DNA of 64,000 bases from a bacterium (GTDB taxonomy: Bacteria > SAR324 > XYD2-FULL-50-16): NCBI GenBank assembly GCA_032250835.1, contig JAVVEA010000011.1, positions 18,211-82,210 on the forward strand. Reading direction: 5' to 3'. Shown piece by piece: positions 44,264 through 54,287 of this stretch. The stretch's first letter is position 1; each line of letters opens with the position of its first letter. Below the pieces are notes generated by a model. That model was not told the DNA's origin. It did no database searches and worked only from the letters and a program-made list of their open reading frames with translations. The position numbers and the translations under genes are program-made.

Positions 44264-44836
44264 ATGCCCATGGAAACGAAATTTTTTCAAGATTACCAAG
44301 CCCTACTGTCTAAAGTCATGAGTGAAGCCTCCTGGGAAGTTGTTGGCCATTTGGCGCAGCGGCTACGGGGCAACTGGCAGACGGGTAATCAGGTCTTCAT
44401 CTGCGGCAACGGCGGCTCTGCGGCCAACGCCATCCACTTGGCCAACGACCTAATCTACGGCATCAACAAAAAGACGGGCATCGGCCTGCGGGTCAACGCG
44501 CTTCCAGCGAACCAAGCGGTCAACCTTTGTCTAGCCAACGATGAAGGCTTTGAGAAAATCTTCAGCCAGCAATTGGCCGTATTGGGCAACGCCGGAGACA
44601 CGCTGATCGTTTTTTCGGGCTCCGGTAACAGCCCGAACATCGTCAAGGCGCTTGAGCAAGCCAAATCTATGGGAATCGAGACCTATGCGATTTTGGGTTT
44701 TTCTGGCGGCAAGTCGAAAGAAATGGCCGATCATGCGCTACATTTTCCGATCGACAACATGCAAATCGCCGAAGACCTCCAACAAATCGTCGGCCACATG
44801 GTGATGCGCTGGTTGGCTCAAAACCCTGTGAACTGA
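44264..44836 (+). CDS. gmhA: SIS-domain phosphosugar isomerase, GmhA-like
   Basis: ICGNGGSAANA.H, NDEGFE.IFSQQL, SGSGNSPNIV. Confidence 0.75.
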   Translation: MPMETKFFQDYQALLSKVMSEASWEVVGHLAQRLRGNWQTGNQVFICGNGGSAANAIHLANDLIYGINKKTGIGLRVNALPANQAVNLCLANDEGFEKIFSQQLAVLGNAGDTLIVFSGSGNSPNIVKALEQAKSMGIETYAILGFSGGKSKEMADHALHFPIDNMQIAEDLQQIVGHMVMRWLAQNPVN

Positions 44837-44840
44837 GCCT

Positions 44841-46316
44841 TTGCGCATGTGTGTAACCGATAAGATCAAAACCGTCGCCGAAATCGGCCAACTCCTAAGC
44901 GAACGCAGCGGGAAAAAGGTCGTCCTTTGCCACGGGGAATTTGACCTACTGCACTTCGGCCACACCCGCTACTTTAAAGCCGCCCGTAAGTTCGGTGACC
45001 TTTTGGTGGTGACCTTAACCCCCGACCGGTTCATCGCCAAAGGCCCCGGTCGCCCGGTTTTCAACGAAAACCAACGGGCCGAGGCCATCGCCAACTTGGC
45101 CTTTGTGGATTATGTAGCCATCAACGAATGGCCTACGGCTATCGAAACGCTACAGACGATCAAGCCGGACATCTACGTCAAAGGTAGCGAGTATTTAGGC
45201 AAGGTGGACGTGACGGGCCGGTTGCAGGCAGAAAAGGACCTGATTGAGTCCTTGGGCGGCAAAATGGAGTTCACCCACGAGATCATCTTTTCTTCCTCAA
45301 AACTGCTCAACAACAACTTCGACGTCTTCACCAAAGCGTCCAAGCCCTTCTTGTCTGAGTTGGCCGCAAAAACCAAGGACACAGAAATCTTGGCGGCCCT
45401 TGCTGATTTAGCTTCGAAGCGGGTCTTGGTACTTGGGGATTTGGGTTTAGAAGAGATCAATTTGATCCGCGACATAGAACGTGCGAAGCTGTCGGAGCGT
45501 TTTGTGCAGCCCCAAGGGGCCTTACTGGGATTAAACTTCCTGGCCCATTTTTGTGAGCGTCTGGACTTTCTTTCCGTTGGCTCCGTAGACCAGCAGTTGG
45601 TCCAACCCTTTATGCCCACCAGCGTCTTTGCGGACCTGATCGCTGACGAGCGCCTAAGCTACCCCAGCAGCCGCCGCTTCATTGACGCCGACACGGGCTT
45701 TCGCCGTTTGAGCCTGCTCGACCAGAAGCATGCGCCACTCAAGATTGAGCAGGAAGCCAAAGTTTTAGAGCGGCTAGAGCGCAACCTGTCTGATTATGAT
45801 CTGGTGATGGTCTTTGAGATGGGTCGAGGCTTTTTGAGCCAAAGCATTAAAGAACACTTGTCGGCCAAGGCTCCTTTTTTAGCCCTGCACCTCAACGTGG
45901 AAGACCCCGCCCATTTGCGTGAATGCCTCAACGGCTATGGAAAGCTCGACCTTATGGTCGCACCCCAAGACCAAATAGGCGAAGCTTTAGAGCAACAGCT
46001 CTTAAGCGAACCTCTCTGGCGCAACAATGCTGACCTTTTGATCACTGAGGCCAACGGGGCTTTGCACCGCCAATGTGCCACCGGCCTTTGCGAGCTGCCG
46101 CCTTTTGTGGCCCAACCCGCTTCTTTGCTCCCCATCGATTGGTCGAGCACGGTTTTTGCACTAATTGCCCCTTTGGTCCAAGCCCAAGCGCCCCAAGATT
46201 GGCAACTACTGATAGGCGGAGCCGCAGCGGCCATGACCCGCCAAGCGGCTAAGGCCCCCTTTAAGTTAGAGAAGATGTTATTTGAAAAATTCGTGATTGC
46301 CCTGCTCAACCGTTAA
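44841..46316 (+). CDS. Nucleotidyltransferase (HxGH) fused to a degenerate PfkB domain, HldE-like with reversed domain order
   Basis: HGEFDLLHFGH, KGPGRPVF, PDIYVKG. The C-terminal ribokinase-like part lacks the GGA and GAGD motifs. Confidence 0.78.
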   Translation: MRMCVTDKIKTVAEIGQLLSERSGKKVVLCHGEFDLLHFGHTRYFKAARKFGDLLVVTLTPDRFIAKGPGRPVFNENQRAEAIANLAFVDYVAINEWPTAIETLQTIKPDIYVKGSEYLGKVDVTGRLQAEKDLIESLGGKMEFTHEIIFSSSKLLNNNFDVFTKASKPFLSELAAKTKDTEILAALADLASKRVLVLGDLGLEEINLIRDIERAKLSERFVQPQGALLGLNFLAHFCERLDFLSVGSVDQQLVQPFMPTSVFADLIADERLSYPSSRRFIDADTGFRRLSLLDQKHAPLKIEQEAKVLERLERNLSDYDLVMVFEMGRGFLSQSIKEHLSAKAPFLALHLNVEDPAHLRECLNGYGKLDLMVAPQDQIGEALEQQLLSEPLWRNNADLLITEANGALHRQCATGLCELPPFVAQPASLLPIDWSSTVFALIAPLVQAQAPQDWQLLIGGAAAAMTRQAAKAPFKLEKMLFEKFVIALLNR

Positions 46317-46317
46317 G

Positions 46318-47877
46318 ATGCAAACAGCCCAAAAAAAGATACTCAACGCCGAGCAGGCGCGCGCCAAATTAGCTGAAATGGCCCTGCAACCGGGGAACAC
46401 GGGCTTGACCTTCGGTCACTTCAACGTAGTCCACCCAGGGCACTTGCGCTTTTTGCACCACGCCCGCGAAAACTGCGACCGCTTGGTGGTGGCGATCATG
46501 AGTCAAGAACAACTAGAAGAAGGCCAGAAGGGCCGCTTCTTCTCGGCTGGAGAACGGGCCTTAGGCGTGGCGGCTCTGCAAGCCGTTGACCAAGTGGTGG
46601 TGCTCGAAGGCATCACTCTAGTGGAGGTGATCGATGCGCTCAAACCAAATTCTTTTGTTTTGGGTAAAGAATTCGAGGAAGAACGCCGCGAAGAGACGGA
46701 GGCTTATTTAGAAGCCGTCGAGCGCAACGGCGGCAAGATCAGCTATTCTTCAGGTGATGTCTCTTATTCGAGCAGCGACATGCTGTTCCAACAACCCGAA
46801 GACATCCACCACGAAAAGATCCGGGAATTCAAAGAAGTTTGCCGCAGAGCCGGGATCGACCTAAGCCGCCTAGGCGAGCTGATCGACCGCTTCACCGACC
46901 AGCGTTTGTTGGTTTTAGGCGACACCATTGTGGATCAGTACATTGCCTGTGACGCTTTGGGCATGAGCCAGGAAGCGCCGGTGTTGGTGGTGCGTGAATT
47001 AGACGCCAAAGAATTTGTCGGTGGCGCGGGCATTGTGGCCTGCCATGTCCAAACCCTTGGGGCCAATTGCCATTACCTTTCGGTGATCGGCCAAGACGAA
47101 AAGGGCCGCTTGATCCAGCGTTTTATGGACGATTTTAAGGTCGGCTGCACCCTATTAGAAGACTCCAGCCGTCCGACGACCTTTAAGATCCGCTACATGG
47201 TCGAAAACCAGAAATTGTTGCGCGTTTCTAGGTTGTTGGAACACAGCATTTCTAAAAAGTTAGAAAAACAGGTCTTAGAAAAAATCGCATCCATGGCACC
47301 GGAGCTAGACGGAATTGTGGTTAGTGATTTTGTTTACGGGGTGATCACCGACAGCCTGCTCGAAGGGTTGGGTAAAATCGCCCAGGAACATGGAATTAAG
47401 CTCTTTGGTGACTTGCAATGCAGTTCCCAAGTAGGCAATGTGGCAAAATTCCAGAACTACCACTTGATCACGCCCACTGAACGCGAAGCGCGCATCGCTT
47501 TATCGGACCAAGAGAGCGGCTTAGAAAAGCTCGCGCGGCGTATGTTGGCGGCGACCCACAGCAGCAACCTTTTGATTACTTTGGGGGCGGCGGGCTTCAT
47601 TGCCTATCAGGGGCTCAGCGGTGAGCCGGGCAAATACGCCAGCCAGCATTTCCCCGCCTTAAACCAAACGGCCCTTGATGTAGCTGGTGCAGGGGACACC
47701 TTGCTCGCTACCATGGCGATCAGCCAATGCGCCGGGGCCAATTTACTTGAATCAGCGGCCCTTGGAGCCTGCACTGCGGCGATCGCCGTAGGCAGGGTGG
47801 GCAATATTCCGATCACGGCGGTAGAGCTGAAGGCCTACTTAGGCAATCTGCTCAAGCAGATGCAAGCCGAACCTTAA
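46318..47877 (+). CDS. Nucleotidyltransferase-PfkB kinase fusion, HldE-like with reversed domain order
   Basis: FNVVHPGH; VLGDTIVDQY, SQEAPV, GGAGIVA, ITPTEREAR, DVAGAGD (intact). Likely ATG at 46318. Confidence 0.83.
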   Translation: MQTAQKKILNAEQARAKLAEMALQPGNTGLTFGHFNVVHPGHLRFLHHARENCDRLVVAIMSQEQLEEGQKGRFFSAGERALGVAALQAVDQVVVLEGITLVEVIDALKPNSFVLGKEFEEERREETEAYLEAVERNGGKISYSSGDVSYSSSDMLFQQPEDIHHEKIREFKEVCRRAGIDLSRLGELIDRFTDQRLLVLGDTIVDQYIACDALGMSQEAPVLVVRELDAKEFVGGAGIVACHVQTLGANCHYLSVIGQDEKGRLIQRFMDDFKVGCTLLEDSSRPTTFKIRYMVENQKLLRVSRLLEHSISKKLEKQVLEKIASMAPELDGIVVSDFVYGVITDSLLEGLGKIAQEHGIKLFGDLQCSSQVGNVAKFQNYHLITPTEREARIALSDQESGLEKLARRMLAATHSSNLLITLGAAGFIAYQGLSGEPGKYASQHFPALNQTALDVAGAGDTLLATMAISQCAGANLLESAALGACTAAIAVGRVGNIPITAVELKAYLGNLLKQMQAEP

Positions 47878-47898
47878 AAAAAAGCTTAGGAGCTTAGG

Positions 47899-48981
47899 AT
47901 GTCCGATAAATACCGCATTGACTCGCACAAGTTGATTTTCCATGTCCCCCGGGTGAATGCCTGGCTAGAGGGCGAGAACGTTTACCCGATCTATATGGAA
48001 GTCTCCCCTGCGGGTGGTTGCAACCACCGCTGTACCTATTGCGCACTGGACTTTATGGGCTACCAGAAGCGCTTTTTGGACACCGGCATCTTAAAGACCC
48101 GCCTGACCGAGATGGGCCAACTGGGGCTCAAGTCAATCATGTTCGCTGGCGAAGGCGAGCCTTTCTTACACCCGGATATGGTGGAGTTGACTGAGCACAC
48201 TAAGGCCGCCGGTATTGACCCCTCCTTTACCACCAACGCCTCTAAGATCGTCAAGGAAGTGGCGGACCGGATCGTGCCGGTAACCAGTTGGATCAAGGTG
48301 AGCATCAACGGGGCGACTGCCGAGACTTACGCCAAGATCCACCAGAGCACGCCTAAAGACTTCGACCGCACCATCGAAAATATGGCTTACGCCGCCGAGT
48401 TGCGCAAAAAAGATGGCCACAAATGTGTCTTAGGGATGCAGTTGTTGCTGCTGCCGGAGAACCAGCACGAAGCAGTGGCACTGGCCAAGTTGGCCAAAGA
48501 AATTGGGATGGATTATCTGGTGATTAAGCCCTACAGCCAGCACCCGCTCTCCAACACGCACCTCTACGAAAACGTTACCTACGAAGGAATTGACCAACTG
48601 GCCGAAGACTTAGACGCCGTCAGCGGCGATGGCTTCAGCGTGATCTTTAGGCGCGAAACCATGAAGACCTGGGACGCCAAGGCACACGAATACGAGCGTT
48701 GCTTGGCGCTGCCCTTCTGGTCTTATATGGACGCAGGCGGAAACATTTGGGGCTGCTCTATGTATATGGAAAACGAAGAGCTGAAAGATAAGTTCCTCTA
48801 CGGCAACATCAACGAAAAAAGTTTCAAGGAAATCTGGGAAGGCGACCAGCGTAAGCAAGCCTTGTCTTGGGTGGAAAATGACTTGAACGTCAGCCAATGC
48901 CGCGTTAACTGCCGCATGGACAAGATCAACAAGTATCTCTGGGAACTGCGCCACCCCCAAGAGCACGTCAACTTCATCTAA
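47899..48981 (+). CDS. Radical SAM enzyme with a Twitch/SPASM-type auxiliary cluster motif (paralog 1)
   Basis: CNHRCTYC, GEGEP, C-x17-C...GNI...CRVNC. Confidence 0.9.
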   Translation: MSDKYRIDSHKLIFHVPRVNAWLEGENVYPIYMEVSPAGGCNHRCTYCALDFMGYQKRFLDTGILKTRLTEMGQLGLKSIMFAGEGEPFLHPDMVELTEHTKAAGIDPSFTTNASKIVKEVADRIVPVTSWIKVSINGATAETYAKIHQSTPKDFDRTIENMAYAAELRKKDGHKCVLGMQLLLLPENQHEAVALAKLAKEIGMDYLVIKPYSQHPLSNTHLYENVTYEGIDQLAEDLDAVSGDGFSVIFRRETMKTWDAKAHEYERCLALPFWSYMDAGGNIWGCSMYMENEELKDKFLYGNINEKSFKEIWEGDQRKQALSWVENDLNVSQCRVNCRMDKINKYLWELRHPQEHVNFI

Positions 48982-48983
48982 AC

Positions 48984-50123
48984 ATGATGGTCCCGCCCCG
49001 TTTAGACCGCAATCGGCTCAAGATCAAACCCTTGAGCGAGCGCCAAAGTAAGGCCGACGCCTCGGTGCTCCGGCACCCCGGCGACTTGGCCCCGGTGATC
49101 GAAGCGGCCCAACAACAACGGCTGGCTGGTTTGGCTGGGCGCATTATCCAAGCCCGCCAAAAGGGGGCTCCGGTGCTGTTGACCTACGGGGCGCATCTCT
49201 TCCGCAACGGCATGAGCCCGCTGATCATCGACCTGATGGAGCGGGGCTTTATCCAGCAGTTGACCACCAACGGTGCCGGCGGCATCCACGATTGGGAACT
49301 AGCCTTTCATGGCCGCACTACCGAGGATGTACAGCAATATTTATCTCAAGGGCAATTTGGTATCTGGGAAGAAACGGGCCGCTACCAAAACCTAGCCTTG
49401 CTGCTAGGAGCCGCTCAGGGTTTAGGTTACGGAGCCAGCTTAGGCAAGATGATGGCCGAAGAGCGGTTGGAGTTGCCGGACCCGAAGCAGCTTAAAAAGC
49501 AACTGGCCCAAGCGCTTAGCCAAGATGAGGACTTACCGCCGCAGCTGGCCGCCCAGGCGGCATTGTTGCAGGTAATGAGCGAGCAGAACCTAACCGCCGG
49601 GGTGATCGACCTGCCCCATCCGGGCCGGGAATCGAGCCTGCTGTATCAGGCCTACCGTCTGGGTATCCCCTTGAGTATTTGTCCAGGGATTGGCTACGAC
49701 ATCATCTACAGCCACCCCTACAACAACGGAGCAGCCTTAGGTCAAGCCGCCTTAGACGACTTCTTGGCCTTTGCCCACTCGGTGAGACAGATGCAAGGCG
49801 GGGTCTATCTTTCGGTGGGTTCAGCCGTTATGAGCCCGATGATCTTAGAAAAGGCGCTCTCTATGGCCCGTAACTTGGCCTTGCAAGACCAAACGCCTTT
49901 AGAGAACTACCAGATTTGTGTGGTCGATATGCAACCGGGCACCTGGGACTGGGCCACCAAAGGGGACCCGCCTAAAGACAACCCGGCCTATTATTTACGT
50001 TTCTGCAAGTCCTTTAGCCGCATGGGCGGGGATTTTGCCTATTACGAAATGGACAACCGCGCCTTCTTCCACAACCTCTACCAAGAGATTATGGTGGCCG
50101 ATGCGGCCCAGGCGCTTGACTAA
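48984..50123 (+). CDS. Uncharacterised deoxyhypusine-synthase-like (DHS-fold) protein
   Basis: YGAHLFRNG, TTNGAGGIHDWE, GIGYDI, SVGSAVMSPMILEKALSMARN, recognised by eye as a DHS-like Rossmann family. Confidence 0.5.
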   Translation: MMVPPRLDRNRLKIKPLSERQSKADASVLRHPGDLAPVIEAAQQQRLAGLAGRIIQARQKGAPVLLTYGAHLFRNGMSPLIIDLMERGFIQQLTTNGAGGIHDWELAFHGRTTEDVQQYLSQGQFGIWEETGRYQNLALLLGAAQGLGYGASLGKMMAEERLELPDPKQLKKQLAQALSQDEDLPPQLAAQAALLQVMSEQNLTAGVIDLPHPGRESSLLYQAYRLGIPLSICPGIGYDIIYSHPYNNGAALGQAALDDFLAFAHSVRQMQGGVYLSVGSAVMSPMILEKALSMARNLALQDQTPLENYQICVVDMQPGTWDWATKGDPPKDNPAYYLRFCKSFSRMGGDFAYYEMDNRAFFHNLYQEIMVADAAQALD

Positions 50124-50175
50124 AGGGGCGTTAAAACCCTAGTTTATTTGATTCAAAACAACCTTTGAGCCAACT

Positions 50176-51039
50176 ATGAACGAACCGAACAAAGGCCTCA
50201 CCCTAGAGGAGATGAAGGCCAAAGCCGACTTTATCCGCAAGGATCTAGTCGAGGTCTGCGTGCGCAACCAAGCAGGCCACATCGCGCCTTCGCTCTCGGC
50301 GGTGGACTATTTGACGGTCCTTTACTACCGGGTTTTGCGCCACAATGGGGACCCCTTATGGTCCGAGCGCGACCGGGTGGTATTCTCCAAGGCCCACGGG
50401 GCCTATGGCCTTTATGCGATCTTAAGCGATCTGGGCTATGTCTCCCGCGAAGAATGGGAAAAATTTTACACCTTTAAAGACGGCAAAAAACTGAGCCGTT
50501 TAGCGGGCTGTTGCGAGATGGACCTTGAGATTGGCTTAGAAGCGGGCTGCGGCTCCTTGGGTCACGGCCTGCCGATGGCGGTCGGGATGGCCTTCGGCTA
50601 CAAAGCCCAAAAGAAGACCGGCCGTATCTATGCAGTGGTCGGCGACGGCGAGATGCAAGAGGGCAGCAACTGGGAAGCCTTGCAATTTGCTGCAAAAATG
50701 GGCCTAGACAACCTAACAGTGATCATCGACAACAACGGCTTACAGGCCATGGACCACCTCTCCAACGTTTTGACCGTAGGCGACGTGACCGAAGACCTGC
50801 ACCGTAAGTTCGAGGCCTTCGGCTGCTTGACCGAGCGTTGTGATGGCCACGACATCGCCGCTTTAACTGAGCAACTAGAACGCTACGCCAAAGGGGGCAT
50901 TGGCCGCCCACAGGTGATGCTGGCTAAGTGCATCAAAGGATATGGTTTAAAGGCCATCGAGAACGTCGCTAAGTTTCACTTCCGCATCCCCACGCCGGAA
51001 GAAATCGCATTCGGTACGCGCTATGATCAAGGGCAATAA
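50176..51039 (+). CDS. Transketolase-like ThDP enzyme, N-terminal (PP) subunit
   Basis: GHIAPSLS, RDRVVFSKAH, GSLGHGLP, GDGEMQEGSNWEA...DNN (ThDP motif). Confidence 0.9.
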   Translation: MNEPNKGLTLEEMKAKADFIRKDLVEVCVRNQAGHIAPSLSAVDYLTVLYYRVLRHNGDPLWSERDRVVFSKAHGAYGLYAILSDLGYVSREEWEKFYTFKDGKKLSRLAGCCEMDLEIGLEAGCGSLGHGLPMAVGMAFGYKAQKKTGRIYAVVGDGEMQEGSNWEALQFAAKMGLDNLTVIIDNNGLQAMDHLSNVLTVGDVTEDLHRKFEAFGCLTERCDGHDIAALTEQLERYAKGGIGRPQVMLAKCIKGYGLKAIENVAKFHFRIPTPEEIAFGTRYDQGQ

Positions 51040-51526
51040 ATTCCGCAAAGACATCGGCCCGCCGCTTTTAGAAGCGGCGCGCCAAGACGAGAAGATTGTC
51101 CTGTTGGTTTGCGACATGGGCTTTGGGGTGGTTGAAGACTTTGCCACCCAATTCCCAGACCGCTGTTTCAACATGGGCATGGCCGAGCAAGGCGCGGTAA
51201 GCATCGCCGCGGGGATGGCCATGACGGGCATGAAGCCGATCGTCTATTCGATCGTCAACTTCTTGGCTTACCGTTCCATCGAGCAAATCCGCAACGATGT
51301 GGTGCTACAGCATCAGAACGTCAAGTTCATCGCTACGGGCGTGAACGACTACTTTGACACCTTGGGCCACAGCCACACCTGCGGCGAGCAGGACAAAGAA
51401 ATCATGAAAATGATCGGCATGCCCGTCTACGATCCTTACGAAAAGGACGAATACCAACTAAAGGACTTCCTAGACATGACCCAGCGCTGGATCACTTCCA
51501 AGGAACCCGGCTATCTACGACTCTAA
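51023..51526 (+). CDS. Transketolase-like pyrimidine-binding subunit (no C-terminal third domain)
   Basis: DMGFG, FNMGMAEQ, SIEQIRND, GHSH; ends at PGYLRL, the normal end of the Pyr domain. Confidence 0.85.
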   Translation: MIKGNKFRKDIGPPLLEAARQDEKIVLLVCDMGFGVVEDFATQFPDRCFNMGMAEQGAVSIAAGMAMTGMKPIVYSIVNFLAYRSIEQIRNDVVLQHQNVKFIATGVNDYFDTLGHSHTCGEQDKEIMKMIGMPVYDPYEKDEYQLKDFLDMTQRWITSKEPGYLRL

Positions 51527-51535
51527 GGACCGACC

Positions 51536-52627
51536 ATGAGTGAAGGGATTAAGTTAAATTACGAAGAAATGGTCGCCGCCTATTGGGATAGCCTCAATAC
51601 GGTACTGCGCGGCTTCAATGCCCAAGGCGAATTTTTGGACCTATGGGTTCCAGATGAAGACGGCGTCAGTAGTATCCTCAACCTGCTTGAAGCGGTTCAA
51701 GAGAAGGGACACGACCAATTGGAGTTGGTGGTTTCTCAAGAAACCGTAGACTCCATGGACCTAGCCCTCTTGCAAGAAGAACTGGTTAGTTTGGGTGATG
51801 TGAGCATCACCGAACAAGCGGGGGGGATTGTTTTACAGGTCAGCGGCTTGGCTGAAGGCGCAGCCTTCCATAACGTACACCCCGTCTATGTCAGCGCGCT
51901 GCGTGCTGCGGCCAAAGGTACCAGCTATCAAGGCAACGTCGAACGCGTCGATGCCCAGGCCCAGGCCGAAGGTTTGACCCTAACGGTCAGCGTAGACCAG
52001 GGCAAACACCTGTTAATCACTCAGGCCCGCTGGCAAGGTGAGGCAGGCCCCTTGGAAGCGGCTATGTTAAATGCCACCTGCCAAGTTCTAGAGGGCATCA
52101 CCCTGGCCGATGCCAGTGACCACGGAGTTTTGCGGGTTGAAGACTTTCTCCGAGACGAAAAGTTGCGCCGCCCCACCAGCGGGATTGTGATCCCAGAGCG
52201 GGTGGAACCGGCCTTCAAGTTGCCCCTCGAATTGATGCGCGGCCTCTTGGCGGACTACCAAAAGAAAGACCCCAAAGCGGGGCAGGTCAACTTCTTTGTC
52301 CCCGCCTTCAGCCAACACTGGGAGGGACTCAGCGACCAGGAACGGATCGGTGAGGTGGCCCGCGCCGCCGAGGGTTTTTTACGGGAGCTGAAATTGGCAC
52401 CCGACAGCCTGAGCATCGAGCGGATCGACTCGGCCGGACGGGTGACCGTGGCCCTCAAAGAAGAATTAGACGTCCACTTTAAGGGTGAGTTGCTCTTAAA
52501 GTTAGAGCGTTTCCTAGACAAAGGCATGGAGCCCAACCTGCACCTTTACATGCAGGAACTAGAAGATCGCAACTCCAAACGGCGACAGATCTTGCACAAA
52601 GACGACCTGGAGAAGGAGACCACATGA
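51536..52627 (+). CDS. Hypothetical protein with degenerate IscU/NifU-like domains
   Basis: ITQARWQG..VLEGITLADA..LMRGLLADY follows the IscU pattern. There is only one Cys in 363 aa. Confidence 0.55.
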   Translation: MSEGIKLNYEEMVAAYWDSLNTVLRGFNAQGEFLDLWVPDEDGVSSILNLLEAVQEKGHDQLELVVSQETVDSMDLALLQEELVSLGDVSITEQAGGIVLQVSGLAEGAAFHNVHPVYVSALRAAAKGTSYQGNVERVDAQAQAEGLTLTVSVDQGKHLLITQARWQGEAGPLEAAMLNATCQVLEGITLADASDHGVLRVEDFLRDEKLRRPTSGIVIPERVEPAFKLPLELMRGLLADYQKKDPKAGQVNFFVPAFSQHWEGLSDQERIGEVARAAEGFLRELKLAPDSLSIERIDSAGRVTVALKEELDVHFKGELLLKLERFLDKGMEPNLHLYMQELEDRNSKRRQILHKDDLEKETT

Positions 52628-53745
52628 ACAAGAAAACTGAGAACAGCGGCCTAGTTTTAGACGGCACCAAGCTAGAATGGCATTTGGACCGCGTCCGCGC
52701 CTGGGAGCGCGGCGAACGGGTAGCGCCGATCACCATCGACATGTCCCTGACCCGGGCCTGTAACTTCGCTTGCGGCTTCTGTTACGCCATGTTGCAGGAA
52801 AACGACCGCCAGCGGATCGACTCAAAGGTGATCCGGGAGTTTTTAGAAGACTGCGCCGAGATCGGCGTTAAGGGCATCAGCCTAGTTTCTGACGGCGAGA
52901 GCACCATCAGCCCGGTCTTTATGGAGACCGTCAAGTACGGTAACGAGCTGGGCTTGAGCATGGCCGTGGGTACTAACGGCTACGTCTTCACCCGCCGCAA
53001 GCTGGAAGAACTTCTGCCCCACCTGACTTATCTGCGGGTTAACATCTCCGCTGGTGAGCGGGACCGCTACGCCGAGATCATGGGTGTTAAGCCCGAATGG
53101 TTCGACCGGGTGGCCCAGAACATCAAAGACATGGCCGAAATCAAGAAGCAGCGGGACCTAGACGTGACCATCGGGTTGCAGATGGTGCTGATGCCCGAGT
53201 ATGAAGACCAAATCATCCCCTTGGCCCAATTAGGTAAGGACCTGCGCCCCGATTATCTAGTGATCAAGCACTGCTCGGACAACGAAGAAGGCGATTTGGG
53301 CGTGAACTACGGTGGCTACAAGGCCATGTACGACAAGCTGCATCAGGCTGAGGCCATGAGCGACGAAGAGTACAAGGTAGTGGTCAAATGGAGTAAAATC
53401 CAAGACGAAGGCAAGCGGAGCTACCAGCGCTGCTACGGCCCTCCGTTCATGATCCAAATGTCTGGCTCAGGTTTAGTGGCTCCTTGCGGGATGCTCTTTA
53501 ACGAGAAGTACAAGAAGTTCCATATCGGCAACATCTGTGAAACCCGCTTCAAGGACATCTTCAACAGCGACCGCTATTGGGAGGTGATGAACCATTTGGC
53601 GAGCCCGCACTTCAACGCCCAGAAGATGTGCGGCACCCTGTGCCTGCAACATAAAGTGAACGAGGTCTTAGACGAGGCCCGCAAGGGCCACCGCGAACTG
53701 CGCGAGCCCGACGGTTTCCCGCCCCAGCACCTCAACTTCATTTAA
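52624..53745 (+). CDS. Radical SAM enzyme with a Twitch/SPASM-type auxiliary cluster motif (paralog 2)
   Basis: CNFACGFC, SDGEST, C-x17-C...GNI...CGTLC. Confidence 0.9.
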   Translation: MNKKTENSGLVLDGTKLEWHLDRVRAWERGERVAPITIDMSLTRACNFACGFCYAMLQENDRQRIDSKVIREFLEDCAEIGVKGISLVSDGESTISPVFMETVKYGNELGLSMAVGTNGYVFTRRKLEELLPHLTYLRVNISAGERDRYAEIMGVKPEWFDRVAQNIKDMAEIKKQRDLDVTIGLQMVLMPEYEDQIIPLAQLGKDLRPDYLVIKHCSDNEEGDLGVNYGGYKAMYDKLHQAEAMSDEEYKVVVKWSKIQDEGKRSYQRCYGPPFMIQMSGSGLVAPCGMLFNEKYKKFHIGNICETRFKDIFNSDRYWEVMNHLASPHFNAQKMCGTLCLQHKVNEVLDEARKGHRELREPDGFPPQHLNFI

Positions 53746-53776: not shown

Positions 53777-53786
53777 TTTGCGCAAT

Positions 53787-54287
53787 ATGACTCTTCCCAG
53801 CAGCCCCCAGGGGCATGTCCAGCCGGGCCAACGTGAAGCTGCGTTGGCGATTATCCGCAACCCGCAGGGTCAATTCCTTTGGCAGCTGCGCGATGAAGGA
53901 ATTGCGGAGTATCCCGGCCTCTGGGGCCTCTTTGGCGGCGGCGTCGAGCCCGGCGAAGCGCCCAACAAAGCGATCATGCGCGAGTTAAAAGAAGAATTGG
54001 GGCTAGAGCCAACGATCCTTTGGGACCTAGGCGACTTCACCCATCCCCGCTGGTACCTGCATCTTTTTTTAGTGGAAATGCCCATTGATTTTGGGCAATT
54101 GGAGCTAAAAGAAGGCCAGGACTGGGGACTCTTTAGCGACGAAGACTTCAACCAAGGGCAGCTTTACTCGCACAGGTTGGGAGCACCCCGAGGGATTTGC
54201 CCCCCGTTAGCCGAACTTTACGAGGTTTTGCGCGAAAACCAATTCCTGCGCTTGCCACCCACACCGGTCCAACTCAGCCGGACTTGA
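53787..54287 (+). CDS. Nudix hydrolase
   Basis: Nudix box GGGVEPGEAPNKAIMRELKEELG. Confidence 0.88.
   Translation: MTLPSSPQGHVQPGQREAALAIIRNPQGQFLWQLRDEGIAEYPGLWGLFGGGVEPGEAPNKAIMRELKEELGLEPTILWDLGDFTHPRWYLHLFLVEMPIDFGQLELKEGQDWGLFSDEDFNQGQLYSHRLGAPRGICPPLAELYEVLRENQFLRLPPTPVQLSRT

Follow-up and report, generated by a model that had tools for sequence, protein, structure and literature searches.

In Escherichia coli NfuA, a degenerate A-type scaffold domain that has lost its cysteines docks onto client iron-sulfur (Fe-S) enzymes. The second Nfu domain of AtCnfU has no CxxC motif, as can be seen directly in its sequence. Dedicated partners of another kind stand beside certain radical S-adenosylmethionine (SAM) enzymes, in the translationally coupled pairs PqqD/PqqE, MftB/MftC and AprD3/AprD4. 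Here we analyse a protein that brings these two themes together. It is encoded in a 64,000-nucleotide stretch of a SAR324 bacterium (assembly GCA_032250835.1, contig JAVVEA010000011.1, positions 18,211 to 82,210), which we call the window. The protein, named Orf363 below, has the predicted fold of the scaffold IscU, stripped of its cluster ligands, and its gene is strictly paired with that of one radical SAM enzyme, rSAM2. We tentatively read it, with somewhat less than even confidence, as an obligate and stoichiometric accessory subunit of rSAM2, with a ligand-less IscU fold at its core and no cluster held in the manner of IscU.

The open reading frame (ORF) spans positions 51536-52627 on the + strand and encodes 363 residues with exactly one cysteine, C182. 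Its translation contains the segments ITQARWQG, VLEGITLADA and LMRGLLADY. A plausible Shine-Dalgarno sequence, AAGGA, stands 5' of the start codon. At the other end, the stop codon (52625-52627) and the start of rSAM2 (52624) share a 4-nt overlap, ATGA, and a strong Shine-Dalgarno sequence, GGAGAAGGAG, lies within the last codons of Orf363, ahead of the rSAM2 start. This translational-coupling junction (52609-52627, +) is read directly from the DNA, and the identical 4-nt overlap is found in distant loci, including metagenome contigs. The single cysteine and the overlap had both been reported in a first-pass annotation of this DNA. Orf363 has no match in Pfam or NCBIfam, and a direct phmmer search of the PDB returned chance matches only, to a [NiFeSe] hydrogenase small subunit (E ~0.4-0.5).

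An IscU fold without its cluster ligands

We modelled Orf363 with AlphaFold2 from an alignment of 84 sequences. The model has a mean predicted local distance difference test score (pLDDT) of 94.2 and a predicted template modelling score (pTM) of 0.87. Three packed domains form a single compact body: N-terminal (~1-106), middle (~107-246) and C-terminal (~256-363). The middle one, encoded at 51854-52273 (+), is an IscU/SufU-fold domain devoid of cluster ligands, as identified by Foldseek, alignments and column statistics. When the full model is compared with the PDB, 50 of the 50 Foldseek matches listed are IscU or SufU; Aquifex IscU 2z7e leads the list (E 3.8e-5, prob 1.00), and the template modelling (TM) scores normalised on the IscU chains are 0.64-0.71. 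Sequence signals are weak and lie in the same direction. A profile of the family finds NifU or SufU chains as four of its five PDB matches (E 0.3-0.4); Pfam NifU_N (PF01592) weakly matches 8 of the 84 relatives (best E 1.5e-4), leaving Orf363 itself unmatched; and hhalign aligns the middle domain with E. coli IscU in the expected register (E 0.0026, prob 12%). The IscU fold is predicted for the middle domain with high confidence. The first-pass annotation, which had this domain tracking IscU and took the prediction of such a fold as its touchstone, is borne out here.

The residues that hold the cluster in IscU are all replaced. In alignments with SufU and IscU, C37, D39 and C63 of IscU fall on Q143, E145 and G171 of Orf363; H105 and C106 fall on P225 and A226, placed by eye on the C-terminal helix (...LLADYQKK versus ...AIADYKSK). 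Column statistics were computed over 156 family representatives. Among them, S, E, T and A are seen at position 143 (IscU Cys37), D, G and E at position 145 (Asp39), S, G, T and D at position 171 (Cys63), and A, I, V and M at position 226 (Cys106); cysteine occurs at 143, 171 or 226 in none of the 156. In place of the LPPVK-HC segment of IscU there is a longer conserved loop, RPxxGIVxP (R212-P213-x-x-G216-I-V-x-P220), which reads RRPTSGIVIPERVEP in Orf363 and holds no LPPVK chaperone-binding motif. The lack of all three cluster cysteines, noted earlier for Orf363, is thus a property of the whole family, and this family-wide loss supports the further claim that the protein binds no cluster, in the sense of not binding one in the IscU manner. 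The description of Orf363 as nearly cysteine-free is apt for the protein itself, with its one cysteine, and not for the family, where the median is 3 Cys per protein.

An exhaustive HMMER search places at least 665 representative clusters (50% identity level) in the family at E<=1e-3, of which 154 also reach E<=1e-30. The 150 matches listed are nearly all 341-469 aa long, and since most of them match Orf363 from end to end, the three-part architecture is conserved. None of the close relatives bears a name, and we found no description of the family or its cassette in the papers searched. In three loci from metagenome-assembled genomes (MAGs), L023 (8001-9051), L024 (8001-9054) and L027 (8001-9028), the one-frame match to the homologue covers the C-terminal two thirds only, the N-terminal part being in a different frame or missing; a frameshift from assembly, a pseudogene or a shorter version of the protein could explain this.

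Sequence identity in the family is otherwise ~30%, and a small set of residues stands out from this background. R25, G216 and D344 are 100% conserved in the 156 representatives. W37 (99%), V38 (98-99%), W262 (98%), E324 (98%) and H196 (97%) are near-invariant, and so are R206, N252 and R349. An acidic residue is present at position 192 in 100% of the representatives and at position 195 in 96% (D195-H196, codons 52118-52123). C182 (codon 52079-52081) is the only conserved cysteine column of the family, at 92%; it is not an IscU ligand position, and it is replaced by Ala, Ser, Thr or Leu in ~8% of the representatives. Together with residues 192, 195 and 196, it sits at the junction of helices 172-185 and 190-205. 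Cys occupies position 193, which probably lies close to C182 across the helix-loop-helix turn, in 16% of the representatives, and position 185 in some of the members without C182. Such substitutions suggest selection for a thiol in this corner of the domain. Altogether, about a dozen invariant or near-invariant polar residues would be compatible with a ligand-binding, catalytic or metal site, or with Orf363 being a protein substrate of rSAM2.

Strict pairing with rSAM2 in variable sugar cassettes

The partner enzyme, rSAM2 (52624-53745, +; 373 aa), matches the Pfam models Radical_SAM and SPASM. It carries CxxxCxxC at residues 46/50/53 and invariant C-terminal cysteines at 270/288/336/340, enough for one auxiliary cluster. 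As these four are fully conserved, it is unlikely that Orf363 completes the ligand set of the auxiliary cluster. Two further conserved cysteines, C77 (98%) and C217 (99%), both absent from the paralogue rSAM1, could be H-atom donors or extra ligands. The homologues of rSAM2 fill more than 6000 clusters under generic names only, with no specific NCBIfam model, and its nearest solved relatives are weak matches: SkfB (1.9e-8), then DesII and BlsE.

The cysteines of both proteins could be taken to signal a metal or Fe-S site on Orf363, made from C182, H196, D/E195 and E/D192, either in a homodimer or at an interface with C77/C217 of rSAM2. Orf363 would then be a dedicated cluster donor, a repair factor or a shared-ligand subunit. 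Mixed Cys/His [2Fe-2S] ligation at protein interfaces is known, for example in Grx-BolA; the Cys/His/acid set at the helix junction is conserved, with the cysteine at 193 in a further 16% of representatives, and so are C77 and C217 of rSAM2, which have no counterpart in rSAM1. We nevertheless hold such a site to be very unlikely: a single cysteine per chain, which 8% of relatives lack, makes a poor set of ligands, the canonical IscU site has degenerated completely, and the cassettes examined hold no gene for a cysteine desulfurase or for any other cluster-assembly protein.

The genome loci of relatives were collected with a 10-sequence alignment, and the domain alignments comprise the window and 22 loci. 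Relatives of Orf363 are encoded in 23 genome loci, from Oligoflexia, Lambdaproteobacteria, Elusimicrobiota, Eremiobacterota, Omnitrophota, Chloroflexota, Bdellovibrionota and Alpha- and Gammaproteobacteria. A tblastn search with the operon proteins finds an rSAM2 orthologue in 23/23 of them, directly downstream of the Orf363 homologue in 20. In three Bdellovibrionota loci, rSAM2 is divergent and ~1.4 kb away; there (L016, 5452-9170; also L019 and L028) the pair is not co-transcribed and a 424-aa ORF stands between the two genes. On metagenome contigs, rSAM2 is likewise present beside the homologue, and in locus L004 the shortened ORF that follows the homologue is the N-terminus of rSAM2. Conversely, six of the six rSAM2 orthologues on long contigs have a gene of the Orf363 family directly upstream (29-38% identity, E 1e-17 to 1e-49), one of them in Azospirillum sp. 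TSO35-2. The first-pass annotation had described Orf363 as a partner of the radical SAM enzymes of this locus, to be doubted if homologues occurred independently of them; all 23 loci and all six converse cases keep the pair together. The partnership stands for rSAM2 and falls for rSAM1, which is absent from most loci that have the pair.

The two proteins diverge at different rates. Identity across at least 8 phyla is 68-88% for rSAM2; members of the Orf363 family are 25-33% identical in most loci, and 54-56% in the two closest. On these identities, the faster evolution of Orf363 would fit an accessory subunit and not a chemically demanding, catalytic one.

It also bears on whether rSAM2 might be a SPASM-type maturase that acts on Orf363 itself, installing a crosslink or a protein-derived cofactor; once matured, Orf363 would do the catalytic work in the sugar pathway. 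The likeliest site would be C182, with conserved acidic residues or Trp as possible partners: the one conserved cysteine column occurs beside invariant W37, W262 and acidic residues. Known examples of such chemistry are QhpD, which forms Cys-Asp/Glu thioethers in QhpC, and anSME, which converts a Cys or Ser of sulfatases. A substrate gene followed by its maturase, translationally coupled, is the usual layout, and the nearest named relatives of rSAM2, at low scores, are maturases (the tungsten-oxidoreductase maturase TIGR04317, SkfB and PqqE). However, rSAM2 resembles the sugar-acting DesII and BlsE about equally weakly, C182 is not invariant, and the pair always lies within nucleotide-sugar cassettes, often with a NUDIX gene. 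Moreover, an enzyme rarely stays 70-88% identical across phyla while its sole folded substrate drifts to 25-30%. That rSAM2 is a maturase and not a sugar enzyme, acting at C182 (possibly with acidic residues or Trp), therefore seems to us quite improbable. If it were true, a new cofactor-bearing enzyme, or a Cys/His metal centre shared by both proteins, would perform an unusual step on a heptose-derived sugar.

The upstream operon context of the window spans 44264-51526 (+). Pfam and NCBIfam scans identify, all on the + strand, a GmhA-like isomerase (44264-44836), a cytidylyltransferase-like protein (44841-46316), an HldE-like nucleotidyltransferase and kinase (46297-47877), rSAM1 (47899-48981), a GSU2086-family protein (48984-50123; NCBIfam NF052581, 322 bits, above the cut-off) and a split transketolase (50176-51039 and 51023-51526). 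A NUDIX hydrolase (53778-54287, +; Pfam NUDIX 7.4e-18) comes directly after rSAM2. Of the upstream genes, those of the HldE-like, GmhA and thiamine-enzyme classes are the only ones to accompany the pair in other phyla as well; rSAM1, the GSU2086-family protein and the split transketolase are found only in the two closest relatives. Most other loci encode E1 alpha/beta thiamine enzymes, one or two short-chain dehydrogenases/reductases (SDR) and often two DegT aminotransferases, and the HldE-like and GmhA proteins are usual. Since the surrounding genes vary, the conserved unit consists of Orf363 and rSAM2 within variable heptose-type nucleotide-sugar cassettes.

In most other phyla the pair lies in a different cassette that is itself well conserved: in loci L029, L031, L033-L035 and on the contig of P0008, the gene order is SDR, HldE-like, GmhA, SDR, E1 alpha, E1 beta, usually two DegT, the Orf363 homologue and rSAM2. 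The cassette of the window, with its split transketolase, second radical SAM enzyme and GSU2086-family protein and no DegT, is a minority variant, shared only with Oligoflexia and Lambdaproteobacteria MAGs. NUDIX homologues are present in L007, L014 and L026, directly after rSAM2 in L007 and L026, and a NUDIX gene also follows rSAM2 in Azospirillum sp. TSO35-2 (L029/L030). Its recurrence hints that a substrate or product of the pathway is nucleotide-linked. The GSU2086-family protein, whose gene directly follows that of rSAM1, has a faint similarity to deoxyhypusine synthase. In Geobacter sulfurreducens, transposon mutants in GSU2085-2087 (hldE, GSU2086 and gmhA) are impaired in growth on electrodes (PMC5585712).

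The flanking domains and their conserved residues

The N-terminal alpha/beta domain (residues 1-106; 51536-51853, +) contains R25 and the motif W37-V38-P39-D40 (codons 51644-51655). In the model, its elements run E5-8, H9-21, H32-36, H43-56, E62-67, H68-72, H76-83, E88-94 and E97-103 (E, strand; H, helix). Modelled separately, the domain reaches a pLDDT of 84.5; its best Foldseek match in the PDB has an E of 0.17, with TM scores of 0.40 at most, and no TusA chain appears in the top 50. Its profile finds chance matches only in the PDB, and no TusA; hhalign with TusA-like PDB sequences reaches the same prob, 0.14%, as in the swapped control. The domain has neither Cys nor CPxP, its invariant motif being WVPD. 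With the fold search, hhalign and the profile search all negative, we reject a TusA/SirA-like N-terminal domain; the domain is without a recognisable fold relative. The near-invariant stretch L36-W37-V38-P39-D40 (51641-51655) also gave a chance-level profile match to actophorin (the 'LWAPD' of ADF/cofilin, E 0.25). This kinship was likewise rejected, because the fold search with the N-terminal domain returned no ADF-H protein.

The remaining part (52274-52627, +) comprises a linker, with N252 and W262, and an alpha-beta-beta-alpha-beta-alpha domain (~256-363). Its elements in the model are H267-284, E292-297, E302-307, H313-330, E336-339 and H345-362, and its conserved residues are R302, the L323-E324-R325 motif, the invariant D344, N346 and R349. 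The modelled order and spacing of these elements match the alpha-beta-beta-alpha-beta topology of Nfu, and a search of the BFVD database of predicted viral structures with the full model gave one match to a 'NifU C-terminal domain', weak (E 0.11, prob 0.99, TM 0.45 normalised on the matched protein). By sequence, hhalign against Nfu gives prob 0.7%, and the profile has no match in the PDB. Since all hhalign runs on both flanking domains, swapped controls included, stay at prob <1%, neither flanking assignment has sequence support. The domain has no Cys and no CxxC, the corresponding loop reading KEELDV. On the strength of the model, an Nfu/NifU-C-like domain (PF01106) is possible.

The mosaic of Fe-S scaffold-like domains put forward by the first-pass annotation is therefore reduced. 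Its IscU core stands; the TusA/SirA-like pattern assigned to the N-terminal ~75 aa is discarded, with a best fold-search E of 0.17 and an hhalign prob of 0.14%. The NifU-C-like C-terminus keeps its topology, its spacing, the one weak BFVD match and the lack of CxxC, and finds no support in the hhalign and profile searches.

The conserved residues of all three domains might instead make Orf363 an enzyme in its own right, for instance an isomerase, epimerase, lyase or cyclase, that handles the same sugar intermediate in the step immediately preceding or following that of rSAM2. Its active site, newly formed on the IscU fold, would be drawn from C182, E/D192, D/E195 and H196, together with R25, E324 and D344, and the tight gene pairing would reflect the channelling of an unstable radical SAM product. 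Near-invariant Cys, His, Asp, Glu and Arg residues in a family otherwise ~30% identical would fit such a site, and the three domains, confidently packed in the model (pTM 0.87), could build a composite pocket. A radical SAM sugar enzyme with a dedicated second enzyme has a precedent in AprD4 and AprD3. Yet Orf363 neither carries a cofactor-binding motif nor resembles any enzyme family, it evolves much faster than rSAM2, and C182 is replaced in ~8% of representatives. We consider a separate enzyme rather unlikely.

Proposed role and relation to known systems

We favour, if tentatively, the accessory subunit because of the strict pairing, the translational coupling, the persistence of the pair amid a changing pathway and the faster evolution of Orf363. 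In the mechanism that we propose, an IscU-type core devoid of Fe-S ligands, and probably of any metal, would be re-used as a structural and docking module, packed against a novel N-terminal alpha/beta domain and, probably, an Nfu-like C-terminal domain. Orf363 would bind rSAM2 in a physical complex. It would take part in catalysis either by positioning a nucleotide-linked, heptose-derived sugar, or by shaping or stabilising the active-site or auxiliary-cluster region of rSAM2. As the first-pass annotation supposed, it may in this way stabilise, mature or scaffold its partner. The pair would carry out one step in a widespread pathway that makes a modified heptose-type sugar for a surface glycan, with GmhA, an HldE-like activating enzyme, an SDR, a thiamine-dependent two-carbon transferase and often aminotransferases as the other enzymes.

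Several points weigh against this proposal. The near-invariant polar residues, spread over all three domains, look more like a ligand, metal or catalytic site than like a plain chaperone. The auxiliary cluster of rSAM2, with its four conserved cysteines, has no obvious need for help with ligation. No natural fusion of the two proteins is found among the matches listed. SPASM enzymes mostly act on proteins or peptides, which keeps alive the reading of Orf363 as a protein substrate, and it is the gene context alone that points to a sugar as the substrate of rSAM2.

The pair is notable for being widespread and for the exceptional conservation of rSAM2. It marks a sugar-modification cassette found in at least 8 bacterial phyla, including an Azospirillum isolate. 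The 70-88% identity of rSAM2 across phyla implies that its reaction, on a heptose-derived nucleotide sugar, is demanding and probably new; attempts to reconstitute it would probably fail unless Orf363 is co-expressed. For annotation, there are grounds to define a new family, which would prevent these proteins from being mislabelled as NifU/IscU scaffolds. For Fe-S biology, Orf363 offers a clear case of an IscU scaffold fold stripped of every ligand and re-used in a different role.

Among described proteins, IscU, SufU and NifU_N (PF01592) share the fold of residues ~107-246, with residual resemblance in the N-terminal helix, the beta-sheet, helix 2 and the ADY(K/Q)xK helix. The differences are those of function and context. 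The three Cys ligands, Asp39 and His105 of IscU/SufU are replaced in Orf363 and its family; the domain is embedded between two others and escapes Pfam; and the gene is paired, within a sugar cassette, with that of a radical SAM enzyme instead of IscS or SufS. Orf363 has the IscU fold and fails IscU on every functional count. With TusA/SirA (PF01206) there is only a loose likeness by eye (a hydrophobic stretch, xPx at a helix start, a helix and a strand), and Orf363 lacks CPxP.

NfuA and NifU/CnfU come closer in design: like Orf363, they join scaffold-type folds in one chain, with some domains cysteine-less and serving other roles, and the order of an IscU-like and then an Nfu-like domain recalls NifU. 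In Orf363, however, every domain is degenerate and no canonical cluster site is left; it has no detectable sequence relationship to NfuA, and its Nfu-like assignment is weakly supported.

In its pairing, Orf363 resembles PqqD, MftB and AprD3, each strictly and translationally coupled to one radical SAM enzyme. Like them, it would be a partner without a cluster of its own and is probably needed for the handling of a substrate. Its fold differs, being neither a winged helix of the peptide-recognition (RRE) type nor a reductase. PqqD and MftB work in a peptide context, as opposed to nucleotide sugars for Orf363, the putative partner of rSAM2. Between these two groups, we class Orf363 as a degenerate scaffold fold put to new use, as the partner of a radical SAM enzyme.

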